Below, one piece after another: positions 2 to 37,021 of a DNA stretch of 64,000 nt. Position numbers and translations under genes: made by a program. The notes under the pieces are model-generated. The model saw nothing but the letters and a program-made list of their open reading frames with translations. It made no database searches and was not told where the DNA came from. Origin of the DNA: Candidatus Limnocylindrales bacterium (GTDB lineage Bacteria; Chloroflexota; Limnocylindria; Limnocylindrales; CSP1-4). The stretch lies in contig DATBLH010000022.1 in the NCBI GenBank assembly GCA_036555445.1, forward strand, positions 11,226 to 75,225. The letters run 5' to 3'. Position 1 is the stretch's first letter, and each line of letters opens with the position of its first letter.

Positions 2-2133
<2,132 letters not shown>

Positions 2134-2137
2134 TTCG

Positions 2138-2689
2138 ATGACCGCCGCCCCAGCACCCACCACCCGTGACGCACCGACGCTCCACCTGGCGCGCTGGACG
2201 GTGGCATCCGGCAGCCAGGTCCAGAGCCGTGGCGCCGTCGTCATCGCCTCGGGCGACCACCAGTGGGAGGCGTCCGCCGAGGGCAACGGGGCGGTCGACG
2301 CCCTGTTCCGTGCCGTCGATCGTGCCCTCGCGGGCGTGCTGACCGGCGAGCCACGACTGATCGCCTACGACGTCCATGCGCTGGCGGAAGGACCGGACGC
2401 CGAGGGCCGGGTGACGGTGAAGATCGGACCGCCCGCGGCCGCGTCGGGTCGGCGGGGAACCGGCCGCTACACGGGCGAAATCTCGTCGACCAACATCATC
2501 GCGGCCTCGATCGAGGCGTACATCGAGGCCATCAACGCGATGCTCGCCGAGGAGCATTGGCAGGGCGCCGCCGATGCCGCTGGCAACCGCAAGCGTGCGC
2601 GGGTGACCGCCCCGGACGCGAAGGCGCGCCGCGCCGAGCTGAACGAGGAAGCGGGCGAGATCGACACCACCGAGTGGTTCAACCGCTAG
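2138..2689 (+). CDS. stand-alone LeuA allosteric (dimerisation/regulatory) domain protein
   Basis: AEGNGAVDALFRAVDRAL...ISSTNIIAASIEAYIEAINAML parallels the C-terminal regulatory domain of the upstream cimA product. A GGAGG lies 8 nt upstream of the ATG. High GC3. Confidence 0.6.
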   Translation: MTAAPAPTTRDAPTLHLARWTVASGSQVQSRGAVVIASGDHQWEASAEGNGAVDALFRAVDRALAGVLTGEPRLIAYDVHALAEGPDAEGRVTVKIGPPAAASGRRGTGRYTGEISSTNIIAASIEAYIEAINAMLAEEHWQGAADAAGNRKRARVTAPDAKARRAELNEEAGEIDTTEWFNR

Positions 2690-3655: not shown

Positions 3656-4111
3656 TCAGACCGCGACCGGCTCCCGGACGGGCCGGACCTCGCGGACGGG
3701 CCGGACCTCGCGGACCTGGTGAACGGCGGGTTCGCGGAGCCGGGCGCCGTTGGCCAGCACGCGGCCGGGCACCGGTTCGGACCGGCACGAGAGGTAGAAC
3801 GCCATCACGCGACGGATCCGGCGCTCGTCCAGGGTGGGATCCGCGCGCAGCGCGCGCTCGACCCGTGACAGGGTGTCGGACTCGCGGCGGAGCGGAGCGT
3901 CGAGACCGGCCATCGCGGCGACACCCGCCTCGGGCTGTCCGAGGGCCCGGGCAATCCGGGCGGCGGTGCTGAGCGAGGGCTGGCGACCGCGCAGCAGTCG
4001 CGACAGGGTCGAGTGACTGACCCCCGAGCGTTCCGCGACCTGGCGGAGACTCAGGCGATGCAGGCGGAGCTCGGCGCGGAGCCAGTGGCCAAACGGTTGA
4101 TCGGGCATCAT
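3656..4111 (-). CDS. XRE-family helix-turn-helix transcriptional regulator
   Basis: HTH segment LSLRQVAERSGVSHSTLSRLLRGRQPSLSTAARIARAL. A GGAGG lies 9 nt upstream of the ATGATG start. Confidence 0.8.
   Translation of the reverse strand: MMPDQPFGHWLRAELRLHRLSLRQVAERSGVSHSTLSRLLRGRQPSLSTAARIARALGQPEAGVAAMAGLDAPLRRESDTLSRVERALRADPTLDERRIRRVMAFYLSCRSEPVPGRVLANGARLREPAVHQVREVRPVREVRPVREPVAV
3676..3715. repeat. 18-bp perfect tandem repeat, about 2.2 copies (GGACGGGCCGGACCTCGC)
   Basis: Direct reading: 3676-3693 equals 3694-3711, followed by a partial third copy. It encodes the VREVRP repeats in the C-terminal tail of the XRE regulator. Confidence 0.9.
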
Positions 4112-4294
4112 TCCTCGTCGCCTCCCGGGGGCACGACCGTGAGCGAGCGATGGCAGGGAACCTACTCCCCGTACCTTGCGATACGCCTTGCGGAAACCTG
4201 TCGGATGTGCGACCGGCCTGGTATCCCGTTCAAGACGCGAAGCAGCCGCCGGCTGTCGCCGACGGCTGTCGCCTGCTGAGAGAAGGGTTGAGCC

Positions 4295-4375
4295 CTAGCC
4301 CCAGCGATGGCCCGCCATGGGTGCGAAGTCGGTGTCGGACCGCGAGATGCGATCGCCGTCGACCATGCTGCCCAT
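4295..4375 (-). CDS. possible micro-ORF (26 aa, MGSMVDGDRISRSDTDFAPMAGHRWG)
   Basis: It starts 2 nt after the stop of the preceding micro-ORF. The GC3 bias looks coding. No homology is recognised. Confidence 0.2.
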   Translation of the reverse strand: MGSMVDGDRISRSDTDFAPMAGHRWG

Positions 4376-4377
4376 CG

Positions 4378-4473
4378 TCAACCCCACCGGAATCCGGCGC
4401 CCAGCGTGAGCGCCATCGATGCCAGCAGCGTCAGGACCACGGTGAAGCGCGCCAGGTTCGCCTTCACTGCCAT
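4378..4473 (-). CDS. possible small hydrophobic peptide (31 aa, MAVKANLARFTVVLTLLASMALTLGAGFRWG)
   Basis: An AGGAGG lies immediately upstream (1 nt before the ATG at 4473, 7 nt before an in-frame GTG at 4467). One predicted TM helix. About 26 of 30 codons end in G or C. It sits directly downstream of the riboswitch-like element. Confidence 0.35.
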   Translation of the reverse strand: MAVKANLARFTVVLTLLASMALTLGAGFRWG

Positions 4474-4493
4474 ACCTCCTGAGAGGCCGCACC

Positions 4494-4589
4494 CGATGAC
4501 GGCGGCCGGGCGGTCTTCGTCCTTGCGGAGCCGAAGATCCCTGGCTTTGCGTCCCCGCCTCGCGACGGGTTTGCCCTGGACGACCATCG
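4494..4589 (-). ncRNA. candidate c-di-GMP-I (GEMM-I) riboswitch aptamer
   Basis: The minus strand reads CGAUGGUCGUCCAGGGCAAACCCGUCGCGAGGCGGGGACGCAAAGCCAGGGAUCUUCGGCUCCGCAAGGACGAAGACCGCCCGGCCGCCGUCAUCG. This contains the GGCAAAC-[hairpin with GNRA loop]-GGGACGCAAAGCC core, a second helix capped by GCAA, and a closing CGAUG/CAUCG pairing. Confidence 0.6.
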
Positions 4590-4664
4590 AGCGGAAGACG
4601 GTTTTGTCTTCACTCGCGACGCTAGGGCCGACGACCCACGCGGCCCATAGCCCACTGGTACTGG

Positions 4665-5276
4665 TCAGGCCGGGCGCTCGATGGATGTGTCAGCGCGCAC
4701 CGGGTCCGCCGCCATCGCGACGGGCTCCGCGGGTGCGCTCGGTGGCGGGGTCGCGGGAGCACGTCGCATCGCGGCCACGATCGCGAGCACGACACCGAGT
4801 CCGATCAGGACGTCGCCCACGGAGAACACGTTGGAGAACGGGATCCAGCGGGGGAGGGCGAAGATGTCGGTGAGGAACCACAGCGCGGGATCGGGGATCA
4901 CCGCGCTGTTGGAGTAGATCGTGGCCGGCGATCGGCCGAGCGAGGCGAGGGCCGCAGGCGAGGCCGGCATGAACCCGCCATTGGCGACGATCGCGGCCAG
5001 GTTCGACAAGGCACCCGCGACCACGATCGCGACACCTGGGATGGCCACGTTGCGAAGGACGGCGACGAGGACCATCGCGGTCGAGCCGACATAGATGGGC
5101 GGGCCCAGCGCATCCACCCGCTCGGCGACGAGATCCGAGAACAGGGCGACCTGGACGAGGAGGCCCGCGACCATCAGCCCGCCCCACCGAAAGCGCAGCT
5201 CGAGCAGCCCGGCGATCCGACCGCCGAGGACGAATCCCAGGACGAGCCCGATCAGGAGGGCATACAGCAGGAACAT
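4665..5276 (-). CDS. DUF5317-like integral membrane protein
   Basis: MFLLYALLIGLVLGFVLGGRIAGLLELRFRWGGLMVAGLLVQVALFS...FSVGDVLIGLGVVL. It is multi-TM and the layout matches the DUF5317 family as I recall it. That family is commonly adjacent to c-di-GMP enzymes. Confidence 0.65.
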   Translation of the reverse strand: MFLLYALLIGLVLGFVLGGRIAGLLELRFRWGGLMVAGLLVQVALFSDLVAERVDALGPPIYVGSTAMVLVAVLRNVAIPGVAIVVAGALSNLAAIVANGGFMPASPAALASLGRSPATIYSNSAVIPDPALWFLTDIFALPRWIPFSNVFSVGDVLIGLGVVLAIVAAMRRAPATPPPSAPAEPVAMAADPVRADTSIERPA

Positions 5277-5528: not shown

Positions 5529-8150
5529 ATGCGGCTTCCTGCCGCCGTGCGCGTCTGGGCGTTCAGCGTTTCGCTCGCGGTCGCTGCCACGATCCTGTTC
5601 ATCGGCGAGGTCCGCTTCCTACCCCGGGTGCACACCCCATTCGAGATCCCGTGGCCGGTCATCGCCGCGATCTTCTGCCTCGCCGAGGTCAAGGTCGTGG
5701 AGGTCCACTTCCGTCGCGAGACCCATTCATTCTCGCTGTCCGAAGTGCCGGCGGTCATCGGGCTGTTCTTCCTCCCGCCGCTGGACTACCTGCTCGCGCT
5801 CCTCATTGGCTCCGGATTTGCGCTCGCGGTCCACTCCCGGCAATCCCCGCTGAAGCTCGCCTTCAACCTCTCCTACTACGCACTCGCGGGGGTCGTCTCG
5901 CTCGCGGTGTTCCACGCCCTCGGTGGCTTCGGCGGACCGCCAGGGCCCGGTGACTGGGCGGCAACCTTCGCCGCGACGCTCACCACGTGCGTCCTCGGCG
6001 CGGTCTCGATCGCCACGGTCATCTCCCTCTCCGGCGGCGCACCCCAGTACCGCAAGTTGCCGGAGATGCTCCAGTTCGGCGGGATGGGTGCGCTGGCCAA
6101 CACCAGCCTCGCGCTCCTCGGCGTCTCGATCCTGTGGAGCGATCCGCTCGCCATCTGGCTGCTTGCGGTGCCGATCCTGACCCTCTTCGTCGCGTACCGT
6201 GCCTACGTCTCGGAACGCGAGAAGGGTGAGCGGCTGGAGCTGCTGTACGAGTCGAGCCGGATTCTCCAGCGTTCGCCGGAGCTGGATTCTGCGCTGGTCG
6301 CCCTCCTCGAACACGCCCGCGAGATGTTCCGGGCCGAGCGAGCCGAGGTGATCCTGTACCCGCGCGACGGCGCGGGGGATGCGCTCCGGACGTCGTGCGG
6401 TGCCGACCTGCCGACGGTCGTGATGTCGCCGGTGGCGATCGATCCGCAGGAGCCGGTCCGGCGCCAGGTGACCGAGCACGGTCACGCGATCTTCCACGTG
6501 CCGCTGGGAGGCCGCGACGCCGACGGGATCCGCCAGGCGATGGTCAGCCCCCTGGTCGGGGAGTCCGGGGTGATCGGCACGATGACGATCGCCAACCGGC
6601 TCACCGAGGGGACGAGCTTCGGCGAGGACGACCTCCGGCTCCTCGAGACGCTCGCCAACCAGGCCGCGGTCGCGCTCGAGAACGGACAGCTGGAGCAGTC
6701 GCTCGCCGAGCTGTCGCGGCTCAAGGAGCAGCTCCGCCACCAGGCCTATCACGACTCGCTCACCAGTCTCGCGAACCGCGCCCTGTTCACGGAGCAGGTC
6801 GAGGCGCGGCTTTCCGCGCACGAGGCCGGGGTCACGCCGGTCGTCCTGTTCCTCGACCTGGACGACTTCAAGGTCGTCAACGACACCCTCGGCCACGGCA
6901 CCGGGGACCTGCTGCTGATCGCGGTCGCGGAGCGGATCGCCGGCGCCGTCCGCGCCGACGATCTTGCCGCGCGACTCGGTGGCGACGAGTTCGCGATCCT
7001 GATCTCCGACCGCAGCGGACTGGAGGAGGCGATCACCCTCGCGGGCCGTCTCCTGGACGCGCTCGCCGCACCATTCCTCATCCAGGGCCAGGAGATCCTG
7101 GTCGGGACGAGCATCGGCATCGCAGCGGCACGCCTCGCAGGCGAGCACTCGGACGAGCTCCTCCGCAACGCCGACGTCGCGATGTACACCGCGAAGGCGA
7201 GCGGCAAGCGGCGCTTCGCCGTGTTCGAGCCGACGATGCACGCGGCGCTCGTTGCCCGCCACGAGCTGTCCGCCGAGCTCTCGCGGAGCGTTGCCCGCCG
7301 CGAGCTCGAGGTGTACTACCAGCCGATCATCGACCTGGCCACCCTGCGGATCTCGGGCGTGGAGGCCCTGATCCGGTGGCGCCACCCGGTGCGCGGCCTG
7401 GTCGTTCCCGACGAGTTCATCCGCCTCGCCGAGGAGACGGGGGCGATCATCGCCGTCGGGCGCTGGGTGCTCCACGCCGCGTCCACCCAGGTCGTCGCGT
7501 GGCACAGGCGGTTCGGCTTTCCGCTGAGCCTGAGCGTCAACCTCTCGCCGCACGAGCTCCAGCAGGTGGGCTTCATCGCCGAGGTCGCCGCGATCCTCGA
7601 TGAGACGGGCCTCCAGCCCCGGGACCTGATCCTGGAAATGACGGAGACCGCGATGTTCCAGGACACGCAGACCTCGATCGCCAAGCTCGACAGCCTGCGT
7701 CGCCAGGGCGTCCGGATCGCCGTCGACGACTTCGGAACCGGGTACTCGTCGCTCGGCTATCTGCGCCGGTTCCCGGTCGACATCCTCAAGATCGCGCGGG
7801 ACTTCGTCGGTCAGCGGGACGCTGCCACACCCGACTCTTCGACCGCGGCGGCCGGGCGGACGGAGAGCACCGCGGACGAGGACTGGGCCTTCGCGCACGC
7901 GATCGTGGCTCTCGGCCAGAAGCTCGGCCTCACCATCGTGGCAGAAGGGATCGAGACATCCGGCCAGCTCCAGGCCCTGCGCGAGCTCGGCTGCGAGCTC
8001 GGGCAGGGCTTCCTGTTCCTGCCCCCGGTCGACGGCAACACGTTCGAGGAGTTCCTGACCACCGCCCTCGCGCCGTCAGCTGGCGGAGCCGAAGTCGCGG
8101 CTGCAAGCAGGCCTCCGCTGCCGGAGGGATCGGCGGTCCTCGGCGCCTAG
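5529..8150 (+). CDS. membrane-anchored GAF-GGDEF-EAL protein (diguanylate cyclase/phosphodiesterase)
   Basis: N-terminal TM block, then a GAF-like region, then a GGDEF domain (RADD I-site followed by RLGGDEFAI), then an EAL domain (VEALIRWRHP, DDFGTGYSSL, EGIET, QGFLF). The start is uncertain: the ORF is open from 5304, and ATG 5529 immediately precedes the first TM. Confidence 0.9.
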   Translation: MRLPAAVRVWAFSVSLAVAATILFIGEVRFLPRVHTPFEIPWPVIAAIFCLAEVKVVEVHFRRETHSFSLSEVPAVIGLFFLPPLDYLLALLIGSGFALAVHSRQSPLKLAFNLSYYALAGVVSLAVFHALGGFGGPPGPGDWAATFAATLTTCVLGAVSIATVISLSGGAPQYRKLPEMLQFGGMGALANTSLALLGVSILWSDPLAIWLLAVPILTLFVAYRAYVSEREKGERLELLYESSRILQRSPELDSALVALLEHAREMFRAERAEVILYPRDGAGDALRTSCGADLPTVVMSPVAIDPQEPVRRQVTEHGHAIFHVPLGGRDADGIRQAMVSPLVGESGVIGTMTIANRLTEGTSFGEDDLRLLETLANQAAVALENGQLEQSLAELSRLKEQLRHQAYHDSLTSLANRALFTEQVEARLSAHEAGVTPVVLFLDLDDFKVVNDTLGHGTGDLLLIAVAERIAGAVRADDLAARLGGDEFAILISDRSGLEEAITLAGRLLDALAAPFLIQGQEILVGTSIGIAAARLAGEHSDELLRNADVAMYTAKASGKRRFAVFEPTMHAALVARHELSAELSRSVARRELEVYYQPIIDLATLRISGVEALIRWRHPVRGLVVPDEFIRLAEETGAIIAVGRWVLHAASTQVVAWHRRFGFPLSLSVNLSPHELQQVGFIAEVAAILDETGLQPRDLILEMTETAMFQDTQTSIAKLDSLRRQGVRIAVDDFGTGYSSLGYLRRFPVDILKIARDFVGQRDAATPDSSTAAAGRTESTADEDWAFAHAIVALGQKLGLTIVAEGIETSGQLQALRELGCELGQGFLFLPPVDGNTFEEFLTTALAPSAGGAEVAAASRPPLPEGSAVLGA

Positions 8151-36945: not shown

Positions 36946-37021
36946 TGGAGCGGGAGACGGGATTCGAACCCGCGACATCTTGCTTGGGAAGCAAGCACTC
37001 TGCCAGCTGAGTTACTCCCGC
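36946..37021 (-). tRNA. tRNA-Gly (anticodon CCC), CCA encoded
   Basis: The reverse complement folds as a cloverleaf: acceptor GCGGGAG/CUCCCGC, D stem ACUC/GAGU, anticodon stem CUUGC/GCAAG with loop UUCCCAA, T arm GCGGG-UUCGAAU-CCCGU, discriminator U, then CCA. Confidence 0.93.

Follow-up and report, generated by a model that had tools for sequence, protein, structure and literature searches.

Does the spacer downstream of a DUF5317 membrane protein gene in a Candidatus Limnocylindrales bacterium hold a riboswitch for cyclic di-GMP (c-di-GMP), and if so, what does this riboswitch control? The question arose from an initial annotation of a 64,000-nucleotide stretch of contig DATBLH010000022.1 (hereafter the window), in which a class-I c-di-GMP (GEMM-I) aptamer was proposed on the minus strand, between the DUF5317 gene and a small open reading frame (ORF). 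The whole 64-kb window was scanned with Rfam cmscan at gathering thresholds (59 bits for family RF03167 and 35 bits for RF01051). The sole riboswitch match fell at positions 4497-4584 of the minus strand and was assigned to RF03167, a member of clan CL00126, with a score of 59.4 bits and an E-value of 1.7e-11. One further match of the same clan, above its own threshold, was suppressed. The match to the clan expected from the annotation was thus obtained; the top label was RF03167 and not RF01051, the latter being reported in three orthologues. The 96-nt RNA quoted in the annotation is an exact copy of positions 4589 to 4494. It contains the GEMM-I hallmark as described there, namely GGCAAAC, a 6-bp CCCGUC/GGCGGG stem capped by a GCGA loop, and then GACGCAAAGCC; it also has the second helix and the CGAUG (4589-4585)/CAUCG (4498-4494) pairing that closes the structure. 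Since the minimum-free-energy (MFE) fold of the leader was uninformative as evidence at this base composition (z = -0.14 at 70.5% GC), weight was put on the covariance model and on comparative data.

Identity and structure of the aptamer

Searching the DUF5317 protein in one genome per species yielded 31 loci. An aptamer was found in 16 of them, in 15 cases just downstream of DUF5317 and on the same strand; in the exception (L025) it lies approximately 1.7 kb from DUF5317 on the opposite strand. An alignment of 17 sequences was used to assess covariation, with slid pairing partners and 500 shuffles as controls. The named structure was paired in 91.2% of the cells, as opposed to 31-52% with the partners slid; ten pairs were changed on both sides, compared with one to four when slid, and none of the 500 shuffles reached the observed score. 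Covariation in related spacers, which the annotation had suggested looking for, was thus found in P1, P1a and the distal part of P2. The inner four pairs of P1 covary, with CG, UA, UG, GC and AU variants and five of six pairs changed on both sides. P1a is 99% paired and includes compensatory changes. P2 is 94-98% paired, and its distal stem shows UA/CG exchange at alignment columns 60-99 and CG/UA exchange at columns 63-96. When the fold was constrained by the aptamer, CCGCUCGAUGG.CG paired with CG.UCAUCGGGUG.CGG to form P1 and its extension.

By comparison with its helices, the core of the aptamer is nearly invariant in the alignment. The first hairpin has the build of GEMM-I: a GC/GC helix, an AAA//GAC internal loop, the CCCGUC/GGCGGG stem and the GCGA loop, and an AAA linker (A4548-A4546) joins it to the second hairpin. 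In the Vc2 aptamer of Vibrio cholerae the ligand is contacted by G20, A47 and C92 (PMC4744006); the equivalent nucleotides of the window, G4575, A4548 and C4502, are invariant throughout the alignment. An interhelical C-G pair is universally conserved in the class (PMC4744006), and the candidates for it are C4551, within the GAC segment, and the bulged G4511 (GAC-CG-CCC), both invariant. The overall architecture fits the original definition of GEMM, which includes a subtype with a GYRA loop (PMC1950547). Together, the covariance-model matches in the window and in the 16 orthologous loci, the covariation and the canonical contact nucleotides established a class-I c-di-GMP (GEMM-I) aptamer of conserved structure in a 5′ leader, as initially proposed. 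Taken as a whole, the sequence evidence makes it probable that positions 4497-4584 are a canonical aptamer of this class (GYRA-tetraloop type) and that its leader belongs to a short, separate transcription unit.

The family label deserved closer scrutiny. RF03167 ("c-di-GMP-I-GGC") is the top family not only for the window but also for 13 of the 16 orthologues, which score 60-67 bits on it and have a hidden lower clan match; the high-GC sequence and the structure of the element are nearly identical to the RF03167 consensus, which gives it the highest bit score. One could conclude that the element belongs to this variant, has an altered pocket and senses a different signalling molecule. However, the margin over the threshold in the window is merely 0.4 bits, and the cmscan alignment opposes GACGC-A-AAGCC in the window to a consensus, GACGC-G-AAgCc, in which the G is conserved. 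The position is that of Vc2 A47, and A occupies it in the window, in all 16 aptamer-bearing orthologous loci and in all listed generic GEMM-I matches of a metagenome pattern scan; the change that defines the variant is absent. "GGC" presumably denotes positions 20, 47 and 92 in the sense of Weinberg et al. 2017; the consensus difference itself is a result of the tool. Moreover, three orthologues are below the RF03167 threshold, yet score well on RF01051 (L015, 58.9 bits; L023, 55.6 bits; L026, 53.5 bits), L015 attaining 58.1 bits on RF03167. Because of the A at the diagnostic position and the RF01051 scores of the orthologues, the element was called canonical c-di-GMP-I and the variant reading, to which we attach next to no probability, was ruled out. 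We judge the RF03167 label to be an artefact of clan competition, with a small high-GC model outscoring a broad one. The riboswitches of Geobacter that recognise cyclic AMP-GMP (c-AMP-GMP; GEMM-Ib) share fold and clan with the window element; in these, the pocket nucleotide at the G20 position is changed to A (PMC9481103). The window has G4575 at this position, invariant in the relatives, and membership in this group was discarded.

Table 1. Features of the riboswitch locus and its neighbours (window coordinates)
Feature	Position	Strand	Details
XRE HTH gene	3656..4111	-	Pfam
Terminator-like hairpin	4231..4268	-	CAGCCGUCGG-CGACAG-CCGGCGGCUG, then CUUCGCGUCUUG; read by eye
sORF2	4295..4375	-	26 codons + stop; MGSMVDGDRISRSDTDFAPMAGHRWG; ends ...AGHRWG
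sORF1	4378..4467	-	29 codons + stop; (M)KANLARFTVVLTLLASMALTLGAGFRWG; MKANLARFT...GAGFRWG
Candidate start-codon hairpin	4442..4467	-	GUGAAGGCG-AACCUGG-CGCgCUUCAC; overlaps sORF1 codons 1-9
Shine-Dalgarno hairpin (predicted)	4474..4487	-	GCCUC-UCAG-GAGGU; contains AGGAGG 4480-4475
Aptamer with extended closing helix	4488..4594	-	P1/P1 extension: 5′ strand 4594-4581, 3′ strand 4501-4488
c-di-GMP-I aptamer core	4497..4584	-	RF03167, 59.4 bits; pair counts
P2	4546-4504	-	Aptamer core
P1a	4569-4564 with 4559-4554	-	Aptamer core; GCGA loop 4563-4560
P1b	G4574-C4573 with G4550-C4549	-	Aptamer core
Equivalents of G20, A47, C92	G4575, A4548, C4502	-	cmscan alignment
5′ hairpin H0 (predicted)	4594..4611	-	GAAGAC-AAAACC-GUCUUC; directly 5′ of extended P1
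-10-like hexamer (putative)	4619..4624	-	TAGCGT (TAnnnT); about 7 nt from H0, on its 5′ side; read by eye
DUF5317 membrane protein gene	4665..5276	-	Pfam PF17248, E 6.6e-27; conserved upstream neighbour of the module
Multi-transmembrane GAF-GGDEF-EAL enzyme gene	5529..8150	+	Pfam; likely start M76 of the 5304 ORF

Two small ORFs downstream of the aptamer

The annotation had noticed an AGGAGG sequence and a small hydrophobic ORF beyond the aptamer. Both are present, the ORF (sORF1) starting at GTG 4467 or ATG 4473 and ending with the stop codon at 4380-4378. The distance from AGGAGG, the Shine-Dalgarno (SD) sequence, is 7 nt for the GTG and only 1 nt for the in-frame ATG, and GTG 4467 is the most plausible start. 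The place of the aptamer before such ORFs is fixed in many species: a small ORF occurs about 100 nt past the aptamer in all 16 genome loci, and seven more modules were supplied by metagenome contigs. In 14 of the 16 loci the ORF encodes a peptide of the MKANLARFTWAVALLASMALTLGAGMRW type, 28-32 amino acids in length; in the other two the peptide is of a related type, MKTKLALFRGKSFRALFTLSSLASAALVLEAAQRWK. The reading frame, the length and the stop codon of sORF1 are kept in 22 loci, and the C-terminal end reads GAG(M/I/L/F)(R/K)W. Pairwise differences at codon positions 1, 2 and 3 are 0.27, 0.15 and 0.39, and 39% of the differing codons are synonymous when read in frame; in the shifted frames this share is 12% and 7%. 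This codon-position bias and the in-frame excess of synonymous changes showed that sORF1 evolves as a coding sequence.

A second ORF, sORF2, begins with an ATG 2 nt after the stop codon of sORF1, an arrangement consistent with translational coupling of the two. Of 24 modules, about 18 have an ORF that starts 1-12 nt past the sORF1 stop and ends with (E/P)(A/S)G(H/Q/R)RW(x). The N-terminal portion of this ORF varies, lacking hydrophobic character in some copies, and the Gly codon of its motif wobbles between GGG, GGU, GGA and GGC. An AGxRW motif thus stands at or near the C-terminus of both peptides. Natural in-frame fusions of sORF1 and sORF2 (P0121 and P0143) produce one peptide with two AGxRW-type motifs. 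The sORFs are followed by a GC-rich, terminator-like hairpin with a U-containing tail; relatives have a similar hairpin, GACCGUCGG...CCGGCGGUC, also with U in the tail, and clear terminators follow the sORFs in L006 and L028. Part of the hairpin (4243-4268, minus strand) is kept in sequence (ACCGUCGG...CCGGCGGU) in L002, L008, L023, L026 and L129, which is unusual for an intrinsic terminator. The unit that the switch would regulate is a mini-operon composed of sORF1, the probably coupled sORF2 and the terminator-like hairpin, a target not previously described.

Conceivably, the sORFs could remain untranslated, the sequence past the aptamer functioning as RNA, either as an extended expression platform or as a small RNA under riboswitch control. 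The nucleotide-level conservation of the first eight codons of sORF1, their ability to form a hairpin and the poor conservation of the N-terminal part of sORF2 would fit such a role. It is nevertheless very unlikely in view of the dominance of third-position variation in sORF1, where synonymous changes are so much rarer out of frame, of the maintenance of its frame, length and stop, of the use of all four Gly codons in the sORF2 motif and of the existence of in-frame fusions.

Neither peptide had a match in Pfam or NCBIfam. A phmmer search of the 31-amino-acid window peptide against 1.84 billion representatives returned 46 clusters for sORF1. Most of these are mis-called ORFs whose N-terminal extensions translate through the aptamer, giving rise to the strings QGKPVARRGRKARD, RANPSRGGDAKPGI and PGQTRREAGTQSQGS, one per frame; about 26 informative cases display this read-through. 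The ORF list of the window contains the same mis-call, a 69-amino-acid ORF (4378-4587, minus strand) whose ATG (4587) falls inside the aptamer and whose reading frame continues as that of sORF1; in public gene calls the error recurs in dozens of relatives. A few of the 46 clusters are sORF1-sORF2 fusions or extend beyond the RW. Some sORF1 homologues carry 7-12 residues after the RW, which weakened the idea of an arrest peptide dependent on the stop-codon context. On present evidence, the peptides are probably small membrane-associated products that would act with DUF5317, the GGDEF-EAL enzyme encoded nearby, or both.

Leader anatomy and the direction of the switch

The anatomy of the leader was compared in 24 modules. 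Hexamers of the TAnnnT type (TAGCGT, TAGGTT, TACCTT, TACGTT and others) were recognised by eye at the same place in many, not all, orthologous leaders, and TAGCGT is a putative promoter element of the riboswitch-sORF transcript itself. Next comes a hairpin (H0), predicted at this position in nearly all leaders. Its sequences differ (GAGGAC/GUCCUC, GAGGGCG/CGCCCU, GGAGCGA/UCGCUCC), the polarity of the arms being the same in most: the 5′ arm is purine-rich (GAGGxx) and the 3′ arm pyrimidine-rich and anti-SD-like (xxCCUC). P1 with its extension measures 10-13 bp and abuts the SD hairpin. The latter was predicted in constrained and free folds of the window; SD hairpins of the form GACUC-N3-5-GAGUC are found in eight relatives and are weaker or absent in others. 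Codons 1-8 of sORF1 are almost devoid of synonymous variation (Ala3 is GCG in 16/16, Leu5 CUG in 20/21 and Arg7 CGC in 19/21), whereas later codons vary freely. A hairpin involving the start codon was paired in 87.7% of the cells, against 26-59% when slid, and showed one compensatory AUG/CAU change (in L007); these data are only suggestive of a real structure. Further upstream, just past the DUF5317 stop codon, a motif approximating GGTACC-N6-9-GG(G/C)C(T/C)AT(G/A)GG was noted at 4642-4664 on the minus strand (in the window, CCAGTACCAGTGGGCTATGGGCC). It occupies the same position in loci L001-L030, including L001, which has no aptamer, and its spacing is unfit for a sigma-70 -35/-10 pair.

From this anatomy, control is probably exerted at the translational level. 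We postulate that c-di-GMP would bind the junction and stabilise P1, the adjacent GAF-GGDEF-EAL protein being an example of the enzymes that would synthesise or break down the ligand; P1 stabilisation in turn would alter translation initiation at sORF1, whose SD sequence and start codon both lie in conserved hairpins, and sORF2 expression would follow through coupling. The direction of the switch is a closer call. The annotation had singled out a GGCCGC (4507-4502)/GCGGCC (4490-4485) hairpin as a possible expression platform. The pairing exists and appears in the unconstrained MFE structure, where it overlaps the region of the C92 equivalent and the anti-SD arm. Because it is the only pairing in the window that competes with the SD hairpin and it uses aptamer nucleotides that the ligand would lock, we lean weakly toward an OFF switch, by analogy with the model proposed for Vc2-tfoY, an OFF switch that has an anti-ribosome-binding-site element downstream of the aptamer (bioRxiv 10.1101/617340). 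A long-range pairing between GCCAGG in P2 and CCUGGC in codons 4-6, seen in many free folds, was set aside because P2 is expected to form whether or not ligand is present and because genes that have no CCUGGC are also found behind this aptamer subtype.

A number of findings weigh against a ligand-controlled leader of this kind or against parts of it. The RF01051 score of the window itself is masked by clan competition. Strict promoter and terminator scans returned none at the module, both elements being recognised by eye. The alternative hairpin of the window is not conserved in that form in the relatives. Aptamer-enforced and free folds of the 24 leaders, compared at three leader lengths, revealed no consistent change in the accessibility of the SD sequence or the start codon (means 0.39/0.39 and 0.19/0.23). 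Ligand might not be needed for the long P1 extension to form. Finally, a sORF follows DUF5317 without an aptamer in 2 of the 31 loci (L001 and L021), which suggested that the peptides are independent of the switch, being tied to DUF5317 rather than strictly to the riboswitch.

The aptamer might act mainly on the upstream transcript, its ligand-bound structure protecting or defining the 3′ end of the GGDEF-EAL/DUF5317 mRNA with no control over the sORFs. Vc2 provides a precedent, as it was reported to stabilise upstream RNA or small RNAs (bioRxiv 10.1101/617340); in addition, the element follows DUF5317 in the same orientation at a distance of 70-200 nt (L025 apart), and a strict sigma-70 consensus scan detected no promoter between DUF5317 and the aptamer. 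Yet a -10-like hexamer and a 5′ hairpin are repeatedly seen immediately upstream of the aptamer, and in L048, L052, L068, L102 and L140, where DUF5317 is absent, unrelated ORFs follow an aptamer of the same subtype (GCCAGGGAUC...GACCGCCCGG). Furthermore, two complete tandem modules with nearly identical leaders are present on a metagenome contig (L129), at a spacing of about 530 nt, each comprising the -10-like hexamer, the 5′ hairpin, the aptamer, sORF1 and sORF2. An exclusive role of this sort appears unlikely, and an effect on the upstream transcript would be compatible with control of the sORFs.

Genomic neighbourhood and relation to known systems

The neighbours are as the annotation described them (Table 1): DUF5317 in the same orientation as the element, a divergent GAF-GGDEF-EAL gene and an XRE regulator. 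The divergence of the GGDEF-EAL gene from DUF5317 holds for the window and not for most relatives, where the gene is co-directional and directly upstream. The two are linked in 17 of the 31 loci. The GAF-GGDEF-EAL protein has a multi-transmembrane N-terminal region, intact GGDEF and EAL motifs and a readable RxxD I-site, and was called from M76 (873 amino acids) on an identical JGI contig. No XRE homologue was found near the element in any relative, and the XRE gene was dismissed as a target. The AlphaFold2 model of DUF5317 is a five-helix membrane protein (pLDDT, a per-residue confidence measure, 90.5), with invariant Asp residues D137 and D155. These two residues alone had raised the possibility of an LspA-like aspartyl peptidase cleaving at AG|xRW, which was abandoned: against the PDB, the best Foldseek E-value was 3.7 with no LspA match, and a profile search of PDB sequences gave no matches. 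Elsewhere in the window, a LeuA/HMGL-like synthase gene (373-2133, plus strand) is followed at once by a separate 183-amino-acid ORF (2138-2689, plus strand) whose only match is to the LeuA allosteric dimerisation domain; a regulatory domain may have been duplicated or split off here. The only Rfam match at gathering threshold besides the riboswitch is a tRNA gene (36949-37021, minus strand; RF00005, 68 bits).

The 31 loci come nearly all from metagenome-assembled genomes (MAGs) of Chloroflexota, Chloroflexia and Ca. Limnocylindria/Limnocylindrales, with 53-66% identity in DUF5317; a few are from Actinomycetes or Acidimicrobiales MAGs. Neither riboswitch nor sORF is present in 13 of them, and in these no GGDEF-EAL match oriented as in the riboswitch-bearing loci was found, L027 and L031 having weak (38-40%) matches. 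In L007 (3883-5513), the riboswitch-sORF module is flanked by two DUF5317 paralogues on the same strand. Since the same aptamer subtype precedes unrelated ORFs, of which at least three (in L048, L140 and L052) resemble signal-peptide proteins, the c-di-GMP riboswitch regulon of these bacteria is probably broader.

The riboswitch is of a known class that any standard Rfam pipeline would find; what is new is the host lineage, the elaborate leader and the conserved target. A well-supported c-di-GMP effector is thereby placed in Ca. Limnocylindria-like Chloroflexota, a group represented here almost exclusively by MAGs, and a conserved, unannotated pair of micropeptides of about 28 amino acids each, often mis-called by gene finders, is recognised in many soil Chloroflexota as the probable direct target of a riboswitch. 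Literature searches returned no paper on a GEMM riboswitch with a small ORF, only unrelated papers for c-di-GMP riboswitches and Chloroflexi, and none mentioning DUF5317. A testable functional link is offered for DUF5317, a family without a described function. The family label also has a practical consequence: when Rfam labels are assigned automatically, canonical c-di-GMP-I aptamers of high GC content can end up in the orphan "GGC" variant, and a search for the ligand of that variant would be contaminated by them. As a tentative proposal, possible rather than probable, the riboswitch, the two AGxRW micropeptides, DUF5317 and the GAF-GGDEF-EAL enzyme would constitute one previously undescribed c-di-GMP feedback module. 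In such a module, which would extend over Limnocylindria-like Chloroflexota and one Actinomycetes MAG (L028), c-di-GMP would set the output of membrane or exported peptides, whose AGxRW motif DUF5317 or the membrane domain of the enzyme might recognise or process; this would retune c-di-GMP turnover or serve as a signal between cells. The interest of the locus would rise if the peptides proved to be components of c-di-GMP feedback or signalling.

As for the peptides, an analogy can be drawn with small membrane-protein modulators and with signalling pro-peptides derived from the C-terminus (for instance those of the MgrB and Phr/SHP types). The likeness consists in the shortness, a basic N-terminus followed by one hydrophobic helix, a conserved motif placed C-terminally or nearly so, and genes lying beside those of signalling proteins; there is no sequence relationship, and some sORF2 copies lack the hydrophobic segment. 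As for the RNA, the closest counterparts are the RF01051 riboswitches Vc2 (tfoY) and Vc1 (gbpA) of V. cholerae. The window element shares with them the 2-bp plus 6-bp first hairpin, the 3-nt internal loop, the GNRA loop, the AAA linker, the variable second hairpin, the equivalents of G20, A47 and C92 and the position in a 5′ leader. An anti-SD element has been proposed downstream of P1 in Vc2, and the window element likewise has a probable translational platform. The differences reside in the tetraloop (GYGA in the window type, GAAA in the Vc2/Vc1 type), in J1/2, which reads UCCAG in the window type, and in P1, whose extension is very long and has a conserved 5′ hairpin beside it. The hosts are Chloroflexota/Limnocylindria and some Actinomycetes. 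Whereas Vc2 and Vc1 each precede an ordinary protein gene, the window element precedes a pair of ORFs of about 28 amino acids.

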